A DNA stretch of 17,799 nucleotides, taken from UHGV virus genome UHGV-1847153; one strand, 5' to 3'. A model generated the notes under the pieces. That model saw only the letters and a program-made list of their open reading frames with translations, had not been told where the DNA came from and ran no database searches. This document shows, one piece after another, positions 7,448 through 14,368 of the stretch; the stretch's first letter is position 1; each line of letters begins with the position of its first letter. The stretch is from a virus. A program made the position numbers and the translations under genes.

Positions 7448-7873
7448 ATGGAATTCGAAATTAAAGGCGTGAAATATCGCACCGCAAAGCTCAGCGTTTT
7501 CGAACAGCTGAAGGTGTCCCGAAAGCTGTTGCCGGTGCTGGCCGGGATGGTTTCTGACTTCCGGAGCATTCAGGAGAAGATCAGCAGCAAAGACACCGAA
7601 GGCGCGATGGCTACCATCCTGCCAAAGATTGCCAATGCTGTGTCCGATCTGAGTGATGGCGACGTGGACGCTATCCTGTTCCCCTGTCTTTCCGTTGTTT
7701 CACGCGAGCACATGAAAGGCTGGGTGCCGGTCTGCCAGCATGGCGAAATGGCGTTTGACGATATCGACCTGCTTACCATGCTGCAACTGGTGGCGCGGGT
7801 GGTCGCCGACTCGCTGGGAAATTTTTTGCAAGGACTCCCTACCAGCGAGACGCCCACCCCGCTAGCGGAATAA
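7448..7873 (+). CDS. Tail assembly chaperone (zero-frame product, lambda G analogue)
   Basis: RBS GGGGAG 7433-7438 before ATG 7448. Directly upstream of the tape measure gene. Contains a slippery run near its 3' end with an open -1 frame extension. Confidence 0.6.
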   Translation: MEFEIKGVKYRTAKLSVFEQLKVSRKLLPVLAGMVSDFRSIQEKISSKDTEGAMATILPKIANAVSDLSDGDVDAILFPCLSVVSREHMKGWVPVCQHGEMAFDDIDLLTMLQLVARVVADSLGNFLQGLPTSETPTPLAE

Positions 7874-8061
7874 CCTTCAACAGCCTGCCGGGCGGTGAAG
7901 ATTTTATTCTTCGCCCGGCGCTTGCCTTCCATATTGACCAGAAAGACCTTAACAGCGGTGCGGTAGACCTTTGCCGCATCGCGCTTCTCAATGACTACCT
8001 CGACATGCGCGAGGATAACGACGCCCGGGTAGATAAATGGAGAGCGGCCAATGAGCGGTAA
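7448..8061 (+). CDS. Tail assembly chaperone -1 frameshift fusion product (lambda G-T analogue); joins zero frame 7448 to about 7822 with the -1 frame to 8061
   Basis: The -1 frame downstream of the slippery run is open for about 80 codons (...KFFARTPYQRDAHPASGITFNSLPGGEDFILRPALAFHIDQKDLNSGAVDLCRIALLNDYLDMREDNDARVDKWRAANER) and ends 10 nt inside the tape measure gene. The chaperone frameshift upstream of the tape measure gene is a conserved feature of long-tailed phages. Confidence 0.5.
7816..7828 (+). other. Candidate -1 programmed ribosomal frameshift site: GGGAAATTTTTTG, overlapping slippery heptamers G_GGA_AAT, A_AAT_TTT, T_TTT_TTG in the chaperone zero frame
   Basis: Zero-frame codons CTG GGA AAT TTT TTG read directly. 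The -1 frame is open from 7759 to the TAA at 8059-8061. Confidence 0.5.
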
Positions 8062-10318
8062 CGCAGATACGATTAAAGATTTCCTTGTTTCGCTGGGATT
8101 CGATATCGATCAGGCTGGCGCTAATAAGTTTGAAGCCGTGCTGAAAGGCGTTACAGCTAACGTTCTGAAGGTCGGCGCGGTGGTGGAAGGCGCAGCGCTG
8201 AGCATTGTCGGATTTACCACTCAGATCGCGAACGGTCTGGATAAAATTTACTGGGCATCCCAGCGGACGGGGGCCAGTGTCCAGGGCATCAAAGCGCTGG
8301 GATACGCCGCATCGCAAACCGGTGCCAGCGCCGAGTCGGCTATGTCCTCCCTCGAAGGGCTGGCCGGTTTCATGCGTAGCAATCCGGGCGCGGAAGGCTT
8401 CCTGAACCGCCTGGGCGTCCAGACTCGCGATGCCAGCGGAAAGATGCGTGATACTGCGGCCATCTTTACTGGCGTTGGGCAAAAGCTCAACAACATGCCG
8501 TATTACCGCGCGAAACAATACGCGCAGATGCTTGGCATCGATGAAAACACGCTGATGGCGATGCGGCGCGGCATGAATGGCTTTACCGCCGATTACCAGT
8601 CGATGCTGCAAAAGACAGGGTTCAACGCTGATAAAGCGGCTGTTCAGTCCAACAAATTCATGACGTCCATGCGCGGGCTTACGTCGCTGTTCGGCATCAT
8701 GCGGGACAAGATCGGCTCAAACCTCGCTGGTGGCCTGGCTGGTTCGCTGGACAGCCTGCGGCGGCGCATCCTCGACAATTTCCCGAAGATTGAAGAGACG
8801 CTGACCAGAGTTATTAAAGGCGTGATCTGGCTTGCGAACGCATTCACGAGAATGGCGTGGCGGCTGATACAGGGCGCTGGCTCTGTCATCGACTGGTGGA
8901 AGCGTCTTGACGATGGCAGTAAAAATCTGCTGAAAATATTCGGTGCTCTACTTGTCGCATGGCGTCTGCTTAATTCTGCGTTCCTGAAATCCCCGATTGG
9001 AATTATCACCACGCTGATTCTGGCGATCGGATTACTCTATGACGATTATCAGACGTGGAAAGAAGGCGGTAAAAGCCTGATTGACTGGTCCAAGTGGGAG
9101 CCTGCAATAGAAAAGGCGAAAAAGGCAATTCTCTGGCTGCGCGATAAGCTTCTGGGGCTGAAAGATTCTGTTGGTGGATGGCAGAACTCGCTGGAAATTT
9201 TGGCTACTTTCATCGCTGGGGTATGGGTAACAAAAGTATTGGGAGCATTCGCAAAAATATCCGGTCTTCCGATACCTCCATGGCTTAAATTATGGGGAGC
9301 GTATGCTGGTTACCTGGTTTCAGATCGTGAAAACATAAAAGCCAGTGCTAAATCATCTTTGGACTATACCAAAAGGAACATTGGTGATGCTCTTGCTACG
9401 GTTGGCATCAAAACCGACCTTGGGCGAAAAGATGTTAGCGAGGTAAGAGAATGGCCCGCATGGATGGATTGGCTGCATGGTGGCCCAGGTAAGATTATTC
9501 GTCAGGCGCAAAGCAATGGCGTCGTTTATGGCGATAATGTTCAGCCTGACATTCCCGGGGCGGAACAGCATGTTCGTAGTAATGAAATTGCCCCGCATGA
9601 AAGAGATGAAATAAAAAACCGTCAGCAGGCTGCTAATGGTTATCTTGAAAAAATCTCAGACGGGATTGCCAAAATCGGTAATTTATTTTTCTCCCCGGCT
9701 GGAGCTGCTGAAATCTCTCCAAATATATCGGGTGACCCCTCCCAGTTTGCGCAATCAGTCAAACGTCCACAGGCCACAGCCCAGGGCAAAGTATTGCTCG
9801 ACTGGATGGGGCCAATGTTCAATAAACTTGAGTCGCTTTATCAACTTCCAGCTGGTCTATTGAAAAGTGTGGCGATAACCGAGTCAGGTGGTAACCAGTT
9901 CGCCATGTCCGGCGCAGGCGCGAAAGGTCTGTTTCAGTTTATGGATGGTACGGCGCGCGACATGGGCCTTCGCGGAAACGATGTATTCGACCCGCAAAAG
10001 TCAGCTCAGGCCGCAGCTAAGTACCTCAGCCAGCTGTTGCGGCAGAACGGCGGAGACCTTAGCAAAGCACTGGCATCATATAACTGGGGGATCGGGAATG
10101 TTAAGCGCTATGGCATGGGGTTAATGCCGCAGGAAACGCGTAACTACATTCCGAAAGTAATGAGCAACATGCCCACCAGCGCCCCGGTGATTCAGCAGGA
10201 AACGAATATTAACATCCACGGCGTTTCCGATCCGCGCGAGGCTGCCCGTTTGACTGTTGATCGTCAAAAGGGCGTGAATTCACAGTTAACCCAGCAACTC
10301 CCCGCAGGACCGAGATAA
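8051..10318 (+). CDS. Tail tape measure protein with C-terminal soluble lytic transglycosylase (SLT) domain
   Basis: RBS GGAGAG 8039-8044 before ATG 8051. 755 aa. Hydrophobic helices in the middle (LLKIFGALLVAWRLL..., IGIITTLILAIGLLY, LEILATFIAGVWVTKVLGAF). SLT-like block around 9840-10130 with catalytic-type ES motif (VAITESGGNQFAMSGAGAKGLFQFMDGTARDMGL...YNWGIGNV). Position after the chaperone frameshift. Confidence 0.8.
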   Translation: MSGNADTIKDFLVSLGFDIDQAGANKFEAVLKGVTANVLKVGAVVEGAALSIVGFTTQIANGLDKIYWASQRTGASVQGIKALGYAASQTGASAESAMSSLEGLAGFMRSNPGAEGFLNRLGVQTRDASGKMRDTAAIFTGVGQKLNNMPYYRAKQYAQMLGIDENTLMAMRRGMNGFTADYQSMLQKTGFNADKAAVQSNKFMTSMRGLTSLFGIMRDKIGSNLAGGLAGSLDSLRRRILDNFPKIEETLTRVIKGVIWLANAFTRMAWRLIQGAGSVIDWWKRLDDGSKNLLKIFGALLVAWRLLNSAFLKSPIGIITTLILAIGLLYDDYQTWKEGGKSLIDWSKWEPAIEKAKKAILWLRDKLLGLKDSVGGWQNSLEILATFIAGVWVTKVLGAFAKISGLPIPPWLKLWGAYAGYLVSDRENIKASAKSSLDYTKRNIGDALATVGIKTDLGRKDVSEVREWPAWMDWLHGGPGKIIRQAQSNGVVYGDNVQPDIPGAEQHVRSNEIAPHERDEIKNRQQAANGYLEKISDGIAKIGNLFFSPAGAAEISPNISGDPSQFAQSVKRPQATAQGKVLLDWMGPMFNKLESLYQLPAGLLKSVAITESGGNQFAMSGAGAKGLFQFMDGTARDMGLRGNDVFDPQKSAQAAAKYLSQLLRQNGGDLSKALASYNWGIGNVKRYGMGLMPQETRNYIPKVMSNMPTSAPVIQQETNINIHGVSDPREAARLTVDRQKGVNSQLTQQLPAGPR

Positions 10319-10932
10319 TGGATATTTTATCAGCGATTTTTCGCCAGCAATCCCGGCGAATTGGAATATTAATCCCCAGCGTGGTTGTTTCTGAAAAGCA
10401 TTCTGATGCGCTCGAAATTACTGAGCACCCGGTGGAGAAGCCAACAACGAATAGCGCTTCGGGCTTCATCGCCGATCATGCGTATAAGCGCCCAAGCGAA
10501 GTCACGATGGAATGCGGCTTCGCTGGTGGCGGTTCATTGCTGGACTTCATTGATACATCGTCAATCGGCCTCAGCGCCGGACTTAGCCCGAAAGAGACAT
10601 ACCAAAAGCTGCTGGATATGCAGCTTGAGCGCGTACCGTTCGATGTGGTTACCGGGAAGAGGGTGTACACCAATATGCTGGTGCGTGCCATTGAGGTGAC
10701 GACCGATAAAACCAGCGAGAACGTGCTGAACTGCACGCTTACCCTGCGTGAAGTGATCATGTCGCAGACATTTAAAAAGCAGGTCGCAGATAAGTCGGAT
10801 ATGCAGGATGGTGTCAGTACGTCAGCAGTGCAGAATTCCGGGACGAAATCGGTTACATCGGTGAATGATTCGCTCTTGGGGCAGGTCACGGGTGCGAGTA
10901 AGGTTGGCGGACGTTATCAGTTACCTTTCTAA
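10318..10932 (+). CDS. Hypothetical tail / baseplate protein
   Basis: TAATG overlap with the tape measure stop (coupled). 204 aa. Function not recognisable from sequence alone. Confidence 0.5.
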   Translation: MDILSAIFRQQSRRIGILIPSVVVSEKHSDALEITEHPVEKPTTNSASGFIADHAYKRPSEVTMECGFAGGGSLLDFIDTSSIGLSAGLSPKETYQKLLDMQLERVPFDVVTGKRVYTNMLVRAIEVTTDKTSENVLNCTLTLREVIMSQTFKKQVADKSDMQDGVSTSAVQNSGTKSVTSVNDSLLGQVTGASKVGGRYQLPF

Positions 10933-10942
10933 TGAGGTTTAT

Positions 10943-11248
10943 ATGCAGTTTAACGAAATACCGCTTTCTCCTGACAATCAGCAGTTCCGCGTTTTGCTGG
11001 GCAATACCACCTATACGCTCAGGATCATCTGGCGCGATGCGGCTGGCTGGATCATGGACGTGATGGATAGCGGCGGTGCTGCGCTTCTTTCTGGCGTACC
11101 TCTACTGACCGGCGTGAACCTTTTACGACAATTTCCACAGCTTGGCATTGATGGTGCGCTGGTGGTGGCTACCGATAAGGGGGCACCAGACGAACCCACC
11201 AAAACCAACCTCGGCACATACAGCCACCTTATTTTCGTACAGGAGTAG
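10943..11248 (+). CDS. Hypothetical small tail / baseplate protein
   Basis: RBS GAGG 10934-10937 before ATG 10943. The ORF-track start at 10865 would overlap the upstream gene by 68 nt, so 10943 is preferred. Stop TAG 11246-11248. Confidence 0.45.
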   Translation: MQFNEIPLSPDNQQFRVLLGNTTYTLRIIWRDAAGWIMDVMDSGGAALLSGVPLLTGVNLLRQFPQLGIDGALVVATDKGAPDEPTKTNLGTYSHLIFVQE

Positions 11249-11250
11249 AA

Positions 11251-12312
11251 ATGTCTCTTAACTGGATGCGCCATTTTGAGCTGCAACTGTTGGACCAGAA
11301 CGGGCAGGGCGTTTCCCTGTCTGACTTTAAGGTCACGTTCCAGATCGAGTGGGCAGACACACGCTGGCCGCGCGTGGCGAACGTGAAAATTTACAACCTT
11401 TCGACCGATACCACGAACAAGATACTGGGGCAGGAGTTTGCAAAAATTCGCATCATTGCCGGGTATGACGGTATTGCGCCGGATGTTGATGCGAGCCAGG
11501 TTGGTGTCGCCCGGGAGATTTCACCAGACCAGGTAGGGCAGGTGAACGGTCAGAACTACGGCCTGATATTTGACGGTGATATTCGCTTCACCGTCACCGG
11601 GAAGGACAACATTACGGATTCCTGGGTGCTGATTCAGGCCATCAGTAACCACGAAGCGTTCCTCTACGCGACTACCATCACCACGCTTGCCGCTGGCTAT
11701 ACCGTTGCGGATCTGCACCGGGCGACGATGCAGGATTTCAACGCGTTCGGCGTGACGCAGGGCATTACCGGCGACTTTCCTGATACTGTGTTTCCTCGTG
11801 GCCGCGCGATTTACTCATCCACCCGTAACGTGATGGACAATATTGCTGCGCAGTGCAAAGCGACATGGCAGTTAGTGGATGGGCAGGTGCAGATGGTGCC
11901 GGAGGATAAATACATTCACGAAGCCATCGTGCTGAATGCCGATACTGGCCTGATCGGTATGCCGCAACAAACGATGGGCGGCGGAGTAAACGTGCGGTGC
12001 CTGATAAACCCAAACATCCGTATTAATGGTCTTATCCAGCTCGATCAGGCTTCGGTGTACCGCGCCGCGCTCGGCAATAGCGAAATCGCACAGTCGCCCG
12101 GGCGTATCACCGAAACAGAAGAGAACGGCAACCGTGTGCTGACCGGCACGACGTCACAGGCTGCCAGCATTGCGACGGATGGCGTTTATATCGTCAAAGC
12201 TATCGACTATACTGGCGACACCAGAGGTCAGGCGTGGTACATGGATTTGATGTGTTTTGCGCGTGGCAGCCGCGATTTGCAGAGTAACGCATCACTTAAC
12301 CGGACGTTTTAA
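11251..12312 (+). CDS. Putative baseplate hub-like protein (Mu gpP position)
   Basis: RBS AGGAG 11241-11245 before ATG 11251. 353 aa. Position between tape-measure-proximal genes and the spike gene. Identity by synteny only. Confidence 0.45.
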   Translation: MSLNWMRHFELQLLDQNGQGVSLSDFKVTFQIEWADTRWPRVANVKIYNLSTDTTNKILGQEFAKIRIIAGYDGIAPDVDASQVGVAREISPDQVGQVNGQNYGLIFDGDIRFTVTGKDNITDSWVLIQAISNHEAFLYATTITTLAAGYTVADLHRATMQDFNAFGVTQGITGDFPDTVFPRGRAIYSSTRNVMDNIAAQCKATWQLVDGQVQMVPEDKYIHEAIVLNADTGLIGMPQQTMGGGVNVRCLINPNIRINGLIQLDQASVYRAALGNSEIAQSPGRITETEENGNRVLTGTTSQAASIATDGVYIVKAIDYTGDTRGQAWYMDLMCFARGSRDLQSNASLNRTF

Positions 12313-12315
12313 AAA

Positions 12316-12666
12316 ATGAAAAAACTCATCCTGATGATTGCTTGCAGCTCTTTTGTCTTGGCGGGCGTGGCTCATGCTGATTCCCAGTGTGGGCCTTTCC
12401 ACTTGGGCACGAGCCCGACAAATGATGGATGGGCACGCATTAACGGTGCGAAGCCTGAAAGTCAGAAGGTAACGTTCCTTAAGCAAAAAGAAGACTACGA
12501 GAACATTAAGATGGAATGGCGCATGGCTACTGACCAGCCTGGAAGATGGGTTGGTCTTGAGTACATCAAGCGCAACGGCAAAGCCATTCTCAACGCACAG
12601 TGGTTGCAAGCCAGCATGGATGCGCCGCGTCAGTATGCAACATACGACTGCGTGAAGGTGAAATGA
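12316..12666 (+). CDS. Small secreted (periplasmic) protein of unknown function; cargo (moron) gene
   Basis: N-terminal Sec signal peptide MKKLILMIACSSFVLAGVAHA with AxA cleavage motif (AHA/DS). Mature protein about 95 aa with two Cys (QCGPF..., ...YDCVKVK). Lower GC than the flanking structural genes by eye. No recognisable family. Confidence 0.55.
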   Translation: MKKLILMIACSSFVLAGVAHADSQCGPFHLGTSPTNDGWARINGAKPESQKVTFLKQKEDYENIKMEWRMATDQPGRWVGLEYIKRNGKAILNAQWLQASMDAPRQYATYDCVKVK

Positions 12667-12684
12667 TGATCCGCATCCTTAAAC

Positions 12685-12738
12685 ATCAATAATCGTTGAT
12701 CTCGCGTTTTTATTATGCACTAATCTGTACATGTACAG
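12685..12738 (+). promoter_or_regulatory. Candidate promoter/operator of the TA cassette: -10-like TATTAT (12711-12716) and 14-bp perfect palindrome CTGTACATGTACAG (12725-12738) directly upstream of the antitoxin RBS
   Basis: One of only two sizeable intergenic gaps in the window (12667-12748). Palindrome read directly. -35 element is weak or unclear, so promoter placement is tentative. Confidence 0.35.
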
Positions 12739-12748
12739 AGAGGGTGCC

Positions 12749-13162
12749 ATGAAAATCATTACTTACACGCAAATGCGATCGGATTTATCTGCAACGCTGG
12801 ACTGTTTACGCTCTGGTGAAAGCGTCACAGTTACGCAGCGCGGAAAGCCCGACCTTGTCATCAGTGCAAAATCAGTTGATGAAATCGCTTCCGCAGATGA
12901 GGTAAAAACATCTGCGAAAACAATAGACACGCATCTTGCGCAATTAATTGCATCGAATTTGTCACCACAGATAACGGAGGGTGTCATGAAGCTTACTAAG
13001 CAATTGGATGCCCTTCTTCAGTCTGATGAGGCTCGCCAGACTATGATGAAGGCCACTAATGCAGCAGTTGCTTTGCAGGGCGTGTCTGAGTCATTTATCA
13101 AAGCTCTGCAACATACTCAGACCAAGCATGCGGACATCATAAAAAAACTGGAAGATAAGTAA
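12749..13162 (+). CDS. Phd/YefM-like antitoxin with an unusually long C-terminal extension (137 aa)
   Basis: RBS GAGGG 12740-12744 before ATG 12749. N-terminus (MKIITYTQMRSDLSATLDCLRSGESVTVTQRGKPDLVISAKSVDE) resembles the Phd/YefM fold pattern recalled from P1 Phd. Stop TAA overlaps the doc ATG (TAATG) at 13160-13164. Internal in-frame GGAGGG-ATG at 12976-12988. Confidence 0.6.
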   Translation: MKIITYTQMRSDLSATLDCLRSGESVTVTQRGKPDLVISAKSVDEIASADEVKTSAKTIDTHLAQLIASNLSPQITEGVMKLTKQLDALLQSDEARQTMMKATNAAVALQGVSESFIKALQHTQTKHADIIKKLEDK

Positions 13163-13569
13163 TGACTGAGATTACATTCCTTTCGGTAGATGAGGTCATC
13201 GCTATTCAGAAGAGCACATTGCCAAATAGCGGACAACCAGACCGGGGAAAACTCGAAGGTGCCCTCAATCGCGTCGATAACTTACGCATGTATGAAGGAT
13301 GTGAGGATTTATTTAAATTTGCAGCTATGTACATGGTTGCGATAGCGAAGTCTCACGCTTTTAATGACGCCAATAAGCGAACGGCTTTCCAGGCCGCCAG
13401 CGTGTTTTTGCTTTTGAATGGCTATGAACTGAATACCTCAATGGAGTTAGTCAAGCTGACCATCTTTGCTGCTACGGGAGAGGCCGACTGCGATAACACT
13501 GCTTTGGCGCTTAAACTTTTGTCAGATTATAAGAATGAGCTGCTGGCAGATACGATAACTGGCTACTGA
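13162..13569 (+). CDS. doc: Doc (death-on-curing) family toxin, Fic fold
   Basis: Intact Doc signature HxFxDANKR (SHAFNDANKRTAF, codons 13354-13380). Overall pattern closely resembles P1 Doc as recalled (DLF..A.Y.VA.A..H.FNDANKRTA....FL..NG...........L...ATGE). 135 aa. Translationally coupled to the upstream antitoxin. Confidence 0.8.
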   Translation: MTEITFLSVDEVIAIQKSTLPNSGQPDRGKLEGALNRVDNLRMYEGCEDLFKFAAMYMVAIAKSHAFNDANKRTAFQAASVFLLLNGYELNTSMELVKLTIFAATGEADCDNTALALKLLSDYKNELLADTITGY

Positions 13570-13592
13570 TAGCAAAAAGTAAATTGTACACA

Positions 13593-13617
13593 ACCCGCCG
13601 CCGAGCGGGTTTTTTTA
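13593..13617 (+). terminator. Rho-independent terminator after doc: stem ACCCGC / GCGGGT with 6-nt loop, followed by T7
   Basis: Stem 13593-13598 pairs with 13605-13610; T-run 13610-13616. Lies 24 nt after the doc stop and 11 nt before the spike gene ATG. Confidence 0.6.
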
Positions 13618-13627
13618 TGGAGTTTTT

Positions 13628-14368
13628 ATGCCAATTCCAACTCAATCACAGATCGGCGGCGAGCAGCAGACCGCGCAGGCCATAGCCGATTCGGTGTCTA
13701 CCCAGATGCGCGTAGCGATGCCAGGCATCATTCAGTCGTTCGATCCTGACGCTGTAACCTGCACAGTAGAAGTGGCGCTTCGCGGTATTGTTGGCGACGG
13801 CTCCACCGAATTAAAACCGCTGGTGGATGTTCCTGTCATCTTCCCGCGCGGCGGCGGCTGCACGCTGACCTTTCCGGTTAAAGAAGGCGACGAGTGCCTG
13901 CTGCTCTTTGCCGACCGTTGCATCGATTTCTGGTGGCAGAGCGGCGGCGTGCAGGAGACCGTCGACCCGCGCCAGCATGACTTATCTGATGCGTTCGCCA
14001 TCGTTGGCCCACAGTCGCAAGCACGGAAAATCAGCGGTATCAGTACCAGCGCCGCGCAGCTGCGAACCGATGATGGTGCGGCGTTTGTAGAAGTCGCCGC
14101 AGGACATAACATCACCATTAAAACACCGGGCCAGCTTACAGCTACGGCTGAAGGTGGAACGACAATCACATCCCCGACTATCACGCTGAACGGCAACGTA
14201 ACGATTAATGGCAACTTGTCTCAGGGAATGGGCGAAAGCGGCGGTACTGCGACGATGCTTGGGCCGGTGACGGTAACGAATGACGTAACAGCTTCTGGTA
14301 TCAGTGTCGCCACGCATAAACATGGCGGAGTACAGACTGGCGGGGGAACTACCGGAGGGCCGCAATAA
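13628..14368 (+). CDS. Baseplate central spike protein (gpV / Mu gp45-like)
   Basis: RBS GGAG 13619-13622 before ATG 13628. N-terminal OB-fold-like region, Gly/Thr-rich beta-helix-like C-terminus (TITLNGNVTINGNL...) ending in an HxH apex motif (ATHKHGG) as in metal-binding spike tips. Followed by W/J/I-like genes. Confidence 0.65.
   Translation: MPIPTQSQIGGEQQTAQAIADSVSTQMRVAMPGIIQSFDPDAVTCTVEVALRGIVGDGSTELKPLVDVPVIFPRGGGCTLTFPVKEGDECLLLFADRCIDFWWQSGGVQETVDPRQHDLSDAFAIVGPQSQARKISGISTSAAQLRTDDGAAFVEVAAGHNITIKTPGQLTATAEGGTTITSPTITLNGNVTINGNLSQGMGESGGTATMLGPVTVTNDVTASGISVATHKHGGVQTGGGTTGGPQ

Follow-up and report, generated by a model that had tools for sequence, protein, structure and literature searches.

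What is a small protein that appears to be made for export doing in the middle of a phage tail operon? The question is raised by a 17,799-nucleotide (nt) stretch of the virus genome UHGV-1847153, referred to below as the window, in which a 116-codon open reading frame, ORF116, lies at 12316–12666 on the plus strand (positions are those of the whole window). An earlier note on this DNA had quoted the sequence of the frame, which is present as given, and had taken it for an orphan secreted protein and the first gene of a cargo island. We find instead that ORF116 is a conserved accessory gene in the tail module of SEN34-like (Brunovirus-type) temperate myoviruses of Enterobacterales. Its variable first hairpin varies together with the C-terminal tail of the baseplate hub encoded immediately upstream, and we propose, with a probability of about 0.4, that ORF116 is a periplasmic, type-specific superinfection-exclusion protein that recognizes the hub tail of incoming phages.

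ORF116 is predicted to be an exported beta-barrel protein

ORF116 starts with ATG, encodes 116 residues and ends with two in-frame TGA codons, the second at 12667–12669. When compared with four E. coli relatives, its ratio of nonsynonymous to synonymous substitution rates (dN/dS) was 0.06–0.27, and it is thus a real coding gene under purifying selection. The gene upstream encodes the baseplate hub of 353 residues (11251–12312, plus strand; phrog_196 baseplate hub, E=3e-84). Its stop codon, TAA at 12310–12312, leaves a gap of 3 nt (AAA) before the ORF116 start, where the earlier note had counted 4 nt. The start has no good Shine–Dalgarno sequence; a GGA lies 13–15 nt upstream. From its sequence context, ORF116 is predicted to be translated in the late operon, directly behind the hub gene, and to be translationally coupled to it.

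The first 21 residues, MKKLILMIACSSFVLAGVAHA (12316–12378, plus strand), form a predicted signal peptide of the Sec/signal peptidase I type with cleavage after A21. The N-terminus consists of an n-region MKK, a hydrophobic core and the end AHA/DS (the slash marks the cleavage site), and thus shows the n-region charge, the h-region and the small residues at −3 and −1 that characterize signal peptidase I substrates. A hydrophobic core (9-residue Kyte–Doolittle mean of at least 1.7, median 2.8) was found in all 114 full-length homologues and a net positive n-region in 111 of them. The signal sequences themselves are not conserved, and they end in the pattern [AV]-x-A/D-[STGQ]-Q-C. These features bear out the Sec signal peptide of the earlier note, and the ORF116 product is, by prediction, almost certainly exported by Sec. 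A lipobox, [LVI][ASTVI][GAS]C, is absent from the signal end of ORF116; its sole early cysteine is C10 (in MIAC), 9 residues away from the start, and the homologues do not conserve it.

Two cysteines of the mature part, Cys25 (12388–12390, plus strand) and Cys112 (12649–12651, plus strand), are invariant in 73 aligned homologues. They are predicted disulfide partners, and the bond probably ties the N- and C-terminal strands together, which supports the disulfide and the periplasmic location suggested previously. An AlphaFold2 model built from the 73-sequence alignment (predicted local distance difference test, pLDDT, 85.9; predicted template modelling score, pTM, 0.71) has an N-terminal helix, which is the signal peptide (residues 2–17, low pLDDT), followed by eight beta-strands, and the mature part, about 95 residues long, takes the form of an eight-stranded up-and-down beta-barrel in the model. 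The variable beta1–beta2 hairpin, P27–A40 (PFHLGTSPTNDGWA, type A; 12394–12435, plus strand; modelled strands 28–32 and 40–42), is the proposed specificity element. The conserved barrel scaffold, R41–K116 (12436–12663, plus strand), holds the invariant and near-invariant alignment columns, including the motifs RINGxKPExQKxTFL, DYxNxK, NGKAILN and MDAPRxYxTYDC, and its strands are modelled at residues 49–54, 63–71, 77–86, 89–98 and 107–114 with pLDDT 85–94.

A sister form of 290–300 residues fills the same slot behind the hub gene. Its signal peptide is of the lipoprotein kind, with LSGC or LVSC (as seen in P0123 and P0135, two relatives of this fused form) and without an Asp at +2; a helical N-domain (about 170 residues) then precedes the barrel that ORF116 also has. 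Since a lipoprotein-fused version occupies this slot, an envelope location of ORF116 is supported. No functional lead was obtained from the N-domain of the sister form.

The ORF116 hairpin co-varies with the hub C-terminal tail

ORF116 homologues diverge mostly within the signal peptide and the first hairpin behind C25–G26 (P27–A40, up to the conserved R-I-N-G). About 85 nt upstream of the hairpin-coding segment lies the segment for its polymorphic partner, the last 12 residues of the hub (DLQSNASLNRTF, type A; 12274–12309, plus strand). In 12 of 18 pairs of loci whose hub bodies were at least 93% identical, both the tails and the hairpins were unrelated, the tails being only 26% identical. 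When the hairpin cores of 140 sequences were typed by average linkage (single linkage over-merged the types), 20 clusters were obtained, seven of them with at least three members; the scaffolds fell into 35 clusters.

The hairpin type of the window itself, type A (PFxLGTSxxNDGWA), pairs with the tail DLQ[ST]N[AST][SA]LNRT[FY] in 10 non-redundant loci, which come from E. coli, Trabulsiella, Kosakonia, Pantoea, Rahnella, Erwinia, an Enterobacterales metagenome-assembled genome and unassigned sequencing-run contigs. Type E (DF[TV]FSTSGxxDGF) pairs with [SN]DSTL[MIL]KTGA, type B/F (PF[RL]L[ST][AP]GPxDGWF) with ..AAK[DN][KR]... and type D (PYRLTAGxxG[FL]M) with ..SQxTLxKxQV; types C (DFK[IV]HWAxDGLA), G (DFTLVPNDDGWM) and H (PYTLDAVKVNDGWV) were also distinguished. 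We infer that every hairpin type has its counterpart among the types of the last 12 hub residues.

Mantel correlations were calculated for 33 non-redundant loci. The results showed that the identity of the hub tail follows that of the ORF116 hairpin (r=0.66, p=0.0005) and is not significantly correlated with the hub body (r=0.10) or the ORF116 scaffold (r=0.12). Partial correlations between tail and hairpin were 0.64–0.66, and the correlation persisted when type A was left out (r=0.39, p=0.0002). No significant correlation was seen between the hub tail and the spike, the tape-measure C-terminus, the plug, Dit or the sheath initiator (r≤0.14), and the values for the hairpin with these proteins were also low (r≤0.18). 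The hub body co-varies with the spike, the tape-measure C-terminus, the plug, Dit and the initiator (r=0.42–0.80). As partners in place of the hub tail, these five proteins and the spike N-terminus were rejected (r≤0.18). RNA pairing was rejected as a cause of the co-variation, as pairing between the tail- and hairpin-coding segments in 12 loci was not above that of shuffled controls.

Within type A across genera, synonymous divergence (pS) was saturated at 0.65–1.15, and nonsynonymous divergence (pN) was 0.06–0.20 for the tail and the hairpin and 0.4–0.69 for the intervening signal peptide. Because pN is low despite saturated pS, the types are ancient, and the tail and the hairpin are each under purifying selection within a type.

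Several observations weigh against a direct recognition of the tail by the hairpin. Both lie within one divergent cassette of about 170 nt, flanked by the conserved WYMDLMCFARG and RINGAKPE, and since such flanks would act as recombination anchors, linkage alone predicts that tail and hairpin co-vary. The intervening signal peptide shows a weak co-variation with the hub tail (r=0.24, p=0.0005), as expected of a cassette with shared ancestry. The pairing also has exceptions: the type C hairpin occurs with two tails, ..AIQ[KR]TNY in four loci and LYSPKAMQGTTN in two E. coli loci (L004 and L014), and the E-like hairpin of locus L028 is paired with a non-E tail. Finally, no promoter of its own was detected for ORF116, the sole promoter-like match (12185–12213) being within chance expectation.

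On linkage alone, the hairpin of the exported protein would be aimed at a target other than the hub, either a host outer-membrane or periplasmic protein, as in receptor masking by T5 Llp or Cor, or a component of unrelated phages, and the tail would follow merely because the cassette is exchanged as a block. The short, anchored cassette and the weak co-variation of the signal peptide with both of its flanks (r=0.22–0.24) are in keeping with this, as is the existence of a lipoprotein-anchored ORF116 version, since Llp and Cor are likewise anchored and Llp works from the periplasmic face of its receptor (PMC9586334). Within a type, however, the hub tail is about 75% identical where the intervening signal peptide is 31% and the hub bodies about 60% identical. 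The tail is thus not a neutral hitch-hiker, since it is itself under purifying selection within a type, which does not by itself prove an interaction. Moreover, tail fibres differ among loci with identical ORF116, including invertible sets, and the occurrence of one ORF116 with several tail-fibre sets argues against allele-specific masking of the phage's own receptor. We regard linkage alone as the main rival to recognition of the hub tail, though a rather doubtful one.

The tape measure offers another conceivable target. As a Spackle-like inhibitor, periplasmic ORF116 would block the SLT domain of the incoming tape measure and halt the penetration of peptidoglycan. A tape measure with this domain is present in every ORF116 module, T4 Spackle, a small disulfide-bonded protein of the periplasm, inhibits a tail lysozyme, and bacterial lysozyme inhibitors are beta-rich and insert an inter-strand loop into the active site. 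However, no co-variation was seen between ORF116 types and the tape-measure C-terminus (r=0.08–0.18), identical ORF116 proteins are found with tape measures that are 78–100% identical, and the pairing with the hub tail would be left unexplained. Such inhibition is improbable.

Hairpin types are old, and some loci carry tandem arrays

ORF116 has changed more rapidly than the genes around it: the proteins are 68–77% identical where the hubs are 96–99% identical, and 34–52% identical where the hubs are 61–64% identical. In the same pairs, the synonymous divergence dS was 0.35–1.6 for ORF116 versus 0.1–0.2 for the hub. Since dS is far above that of the hub, the ORF116 alleles are old and have moved by recombination. 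No hairpin type is tied to a single C-terminal scaffold; each is found on several, and five types share one E. coli-type scaffold. We infer that the hairpin is a specificity loop that exists in a few ancient, discrete types on a conserved barrel scaffold.

The window has a single ORF116 copy. Tandem arrays between hub and spike were found in three loci: Serratia aquatilis L022 (7695–12583) with seven copies, one of them frameshifted, Pseudescherichia vulneris L023 (629–2849) with four copies, and the metagenome contig L067 (1–1657) with at least four. All array copies carry signal peptides of their own, and their hairpin types mostly differ. The scaffolds of five L022 copies are 84–99% identical and their hairpins only 14–46% identical, except for a repeated type-E pair at 93%; a sixth copy is divergent throughout, and the hub-proximal copy has the hairpin type found elsewhere with that hub tail. 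The L022 array is interrupted by a minus-strand frame of 402 residues, which we take to be an insertion-sequence transposase.

ORF116 is accessory to the tail

Two distant relatives with the same baseplate type, Providencia PSTCR3 and Acinetobacter AbTJ, have the spike gene directly behind the hub gene and no ORF116, and in Hafnia phage yong1, whose hub is 64% identical, an unrelated, non-secreted reading frame stands at the ORF116 position. Because the gene is absent from PSTCR3 and AbTJ and replaced in yong1, it is accessory and not structural. ORF116 was missing only in distant relatives, apart from the one replacement in yong1. In Izhakiella australiensis (L035, 8525–10129), a single frame joins the hub to the C-terminal half of an ORF116 homologue; this fusion looks like a deletion that destroyed the homologue.

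Unrelated secreted proteins were observed at nearby positions in two phages. Burkholderia phage Magia (L039, 3945–4316, minus strand) has one of 123 residues between hub and spike, on the opposite strand, and Providencia phage PSTCR3 (L038, 2463–2936) has one of 157 residues between plug and hub. Exported proteins may have been placed beside tail-tip genes convergently in these phages.

These relatives and the arrays bear on the idea that ORF116 is a virion accessory which folds and oxidizes in the periplasm and, at lysis, docks by its hairpin on the hub tail of progeny particles as a baseplate decoration. A matched hairpin and hub tail are what a docking pair would be expected to look like, and the gene belongs to the late operon and is, by prediction, translationally coupled to the hub gene. 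A docking pair, however, gives no reason for a balanced polymorphism, most array copies differ from the hub-proximal hairpin type and would be useless for docking, and related functional phages either lack the gene or have another in its place. We find this role quite improbable, more so than inhibition of the SLT domain. Balanced polymorphism together with arrays is predicted by a conflict system and by neither a docking pair nor an assembly pair.

A proposed mechanism of type-specific exclusion

Superinfection exclusion had been named in the earlier note as one of the usual roles of small secreted prophage proteins. It remains plausible and is the role that we favour, resting now on evidence that the note did not have. 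Since ORF116 and the hub are made in different compartments, their natural meeting place is the periplasm of an attacked cell. The hub, the tip and the tape-measure C-terminus of this baseplate type have been proposed to be ejected into the periplasm (Pa193 structure paper, PMC11456595), and T4 Spackle is one of the known periplasmic proteins by which tail-tip components of an incoming phage are neutralized (PMC7677548).

The proposed setting is a cell that expresses the late genes of the prophage, or a lysogen in which ORF116 is expressed. There, the hairpin of periplasmic ORF116 would bind the putatively exposed hub C-tail of a same-type phage that is entering the cell, capturing the tail as the spike–hub tip is driven through the outer membrane. 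The captured tail would block the opening of the tip and the exit of the tape measure and the DNA, and the result would be type-specific exclusion. Phages with rare hub-tail types would escape the common ORF116 types, whereby the polymorphism would be maintained, and arrays of several hairpin types would widen the range of exclusion.

In its full form the proposal is somewhat more tentative. Tail and hairpin may constitute a lock-and-key 'exclusion group' system, in which a periplasmic receptor of a prophage's own type blocks same-type entry at tip opening, negative frequency-dependent selection keeps about seven ancient types across Enterobacterales, and some prophages stack receptors in arrays. 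This would amount to an incompatibility layer inside the tail operon, separate from repressor immunity.

Late-operon expression and a periplasmic location would also suit an accessory lysis factor. The relative Mulock has a complete cassette of holin, signal-arrest-release endolysin and spanin elsewhere in its genome (PMC6856289), however, and a lysis role is therefore not needed; it would also leave the type polymorphism and the arrays unexplained. We consider such a factor highly improbable.

ORF116 belongs to a small family of Enterobacterales

ORF116 was found not to be an orphan. It matches phrog_3443 over its full length (residues 3–116 versus profile positions 3–114 of 115, E=7.2e-46), and a search of 5.8 billion clustered proteins gave at least 169 homologous clusters at 90% identity, from E. 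coli, Salmonella, Citrobacter, Enterobacter, Klebsiella, Serratia, Yersinia, Pantoea, Cronobacter and others. An exhaustive profile search yielded 63 representatives at 50% identity, and homologues are encoded by 20 deposited phage genomes. Judged by these matches, the family is small and restricted to Enterobacterales. Database labels for the homologues read 'hypothetical' or, via an automatic rule, 'secreted protein'.

Pfam and NCBIfam gave nothing meaningful for ORF116, the NCBIfam PhrK match covering the signal peptide only; no PADLOC family matched at E up to 0.1, and a sequence-profile search of the PDB returned spurious nanobody matches only. We found no paper on the ORF116 family or on hub-directed exclusion. 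The family phrog_3443 is thus catalogued, yet without a described function, structure or genomic-context analysis.

The phages SEN34 (Brunovirus) and Mulock and several Klebsiella and E. coli phages have the same gene order as the window, with homologues that are 34–51% identical. In Salmonella phage SEN34, the homologue SEN34_20 (L007, 3486–3827) was deposited with an internal ATG as its start, giving 77 residues; a TTG start 108 nt upstream recovers the signal peptide and the conserved cysteine.

ORF116 lies outside the variable cargo slot

The order of the module in the window is tape measure, Dit-like, plug, hub, ORF116, Phd, Doc, spike, sheath initiator, J/gp47 and wedge. Comparison by blastn showed that the backbone shared with related prophages and phages runs through 12662–12664 and resumes at 13592–13605. 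Given these homology breakpoints, the swappable slot starts behind the ORF116 stop codon. ORF116 is therefore not the first gene of the cargo island, as the earlier note had it; the island, a variable slot at 12667–13604, begins behind it and holds phd (12749–13162), doc (13162–13569), both matched in Pfam, NCBIfam and PHROG, and a terminator-like hairpin (13592–13611). The right border of the slot is the spike gene (13628–14368, plus strand; PF18352 and PF18946, with the gpV Apex motif), which is conserved 3' of the slot in all loci.

In 50 loci, the slot was 58–2348 nt long. Relatives carry in it Phd/Doc, an opposite-strand DUF4236 gene, a protein of 210 residues, a minus-strand frame of 116 residues, an Mrr-like nuclease or HEPN-like pairs, and the Rahnella L015 and Pantoea L025 loci have no cargo, with 58–62 nt between ORF116 and spike. 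An ORF116 homologue lies directly behind the hub gene, within about 20 nt or overlapping it, in nearly all of some 60 loci, which span at least 12 genera; fusions or arrays account for the remainder.

ORF116 does not travel with the toxin–antitoxin pair. The identical ORF116 protein was found with a different cargo (L044), a 96% identical copy stands beside another cargo (L002), and the same Phd/Doc pair (83% and 94% amino acid identity) lies beside a 46% identical homologue in Serratia (L034). Given L044 and L034, ORF116 and the pair are inherited independently. A fixed co-occurrence with the pair, which the earlier note had proposed to check, is thus not borne out by the loci with other cargo or none; the gene was present in every relative seen to carry the toxin–antitoxin pair, and no disrupted or missing copy was found among them.

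On the reading closest to the earlier note, ORF116 would be an orphan moron or cargo gene that travels with Phd/Doc and serves host fitness or virulence. The protein is indeed predicted to be secreted and its gene adjoins the cargo slot, but the family comprises at least 169 clusters, the position is fixed whatever the cargo and also without cargo, and the toxin–antitoxin pair moves independently. Furthermore, a terminator 3' of ORF116 was not found and a promoter was likewise not detected, and the presence of the gene is conserved across the loci rather than sporadic, so that the term moron does not fit. This role has very little probability.

With regard to the Phd/Doc cassette itself, a tandem perfect palindrome, TGTACATGTACA (12726–12737), lies just 5' of the phd start (ATG at 12749, ribosome-binding site GAGGG) and is a likely operator. 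The cassette occupies the middle of the tail operon, and the terminator-like hairpin with its T-run (13592–13611) stands directly before the spike gene; a terminator within the late operon would require read-through or antitermination. In locus L003, the terminator-like hairpin belongs to the conserved right flank. Other E. coli genomes contain a Phd/Doc pair with about 82% DNA identity; only the phd-doc part of the query aligned there, consistent with an independently mobile cassette.

Neighbouring genes and related prophages

The tape measure with its SLT domain is encoded at 8051–10318, and the plug is of the Pam3 gp18 type. The longest plug frame (10865–11248) overlaps the Dit-like gene (10318–10932) by 68 nt, and relatives annotate a plug of 101 residues that starts near 10943; the true start is therefore probably downstream of 10865. 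The hub gave 26 bits against PF22759 (E217_GP41), just below the cut-off. In relatives, a small DUF6889 frame is found between the tail assembly chaperone and the tape measure (7448–8051 in the window; 5891–6019 in L041), which suggests the usual chaperone frameshift product just 5' of the tape-measure gene.

In the loci with identical ORF116 (L041–L045, 15888–20351), the prophage ends behind tail-fibre and Caudo_TAP genes. The Pfam domains of the flank, PBP, aminotransferase class III, radical SAM/BATS, aminotransferase class I/II and methyltransferase, fit ybhB-bioA-bioB-bioF-bioC, and by this domain fit the flank belongs to the lambda attachment region, on its bio side. Prophages of this type with other alleles are integrated elsewhere in the chromosome, and some of them have an invertible tail-fibre segment and a resolvase-family gene.

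Implications

If the pairing is functional, a peptide and its receptor would decide which related prophages superinfect which lysogens among E. coli, Salmonella, Klebsiella, Serratia and their relatives, and the pair could be read directly from sequence. Type-specific exclusion would then act on the baseplate hub, which has not been described as a target until now. This would account for the constant place of a small exported protein within a tail operon and would provide a practical marker for interference between phages and prophages, for example in phage therapy and in studies of prophage induction. Even with linkage alone, the architecture of phrog_3443 is defined as a signal peptide, a variable hairpin and a disulfide-closed barrel, the true borders of the hub–spike cargo hotspot are mapped, and ancient hairpin types persist on exchanged scaffolds.

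Comparison with known systems

With respect to fold, the eight-stranded barrels of avidin and streptavidin share general topology only with the ORF116 model (6–8% sequence identity, Foldseek not significant), and nothing points to biotin binding by ORF116. No Pfam match or close fold match was found to the lysozyme inhibitors MliC/PliC, Ivy, PliG and PliI.

The nearest likeness in mechanism is T4 Spackle (gp61.3), a small phage protein with a cleaved periplasmic targeting signal and one disulfide that neutralizes a tail-tip component of incoming related phages (PMC7677548). Spackle differs in being an alpha-helical bundle of 75 residues that inhibits an enzyme, the gp5 lysozyme, whereas ORF116 is modelled as a beta-barrel, its proposed target is a short polymorphic hub tail, and it occurs in discrete types and arrays. 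No PDB sequence or fold match to Spackle was found for ORF116, whose model is all-beta.

The T5 Llp and Cor lipoproteins are also small phage proteins that act from the periplasmic side (PMC9586334), and some ORF116 relatives are outer-membrane-type lipoprotein fusions. Llp, however, targets the host receptor FhuA and has no sequence similarity to ORF116, which in turn has no lipobox in a conserved position and whose alleles do not follow the tail-fibre type. Two further prophage exclusion factors, TP-J34 Ltp (described in PMC3952083) and HK97 gp15, are proposed to act on ejected tail proteins, namely the tape measure. They differ from ORF116 in fold, anchor and target, and ORF116 shows no co-variation with the tape measure. 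Thus, Spackle, Llp and Ltp are analogues by mechanism, and none is related to ORF116 in sequence or fold.

Contact-dependent inhibition (CDI), Rhs and type VI secretion system (T6SS) loci encode polymorphic toxins with cognate immunity proteins and carry orphan immunity arrays. The ORF116 locus resembles them in that a small, matched gene comes directly behind a large one whose product has a variable C-terminal end, and in its discrete ancient types, modular exchange and divergent tandem arrays. As expected of polymorphic partners, the upstream variable end co-varies with the downstream small protein, and arrays of divergent extra copies are found. Unlike in those systems, the variable hub end is only about 12 residues long and has no toxin domain, it is the small protein that is exported, and its large partner belongs to the virion. 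Periplasmic exclusion proteins encoded by phages are already known; a typed cassette of hub tail and exported barrel that also forms arrays is, as far as our literature searches show, new.

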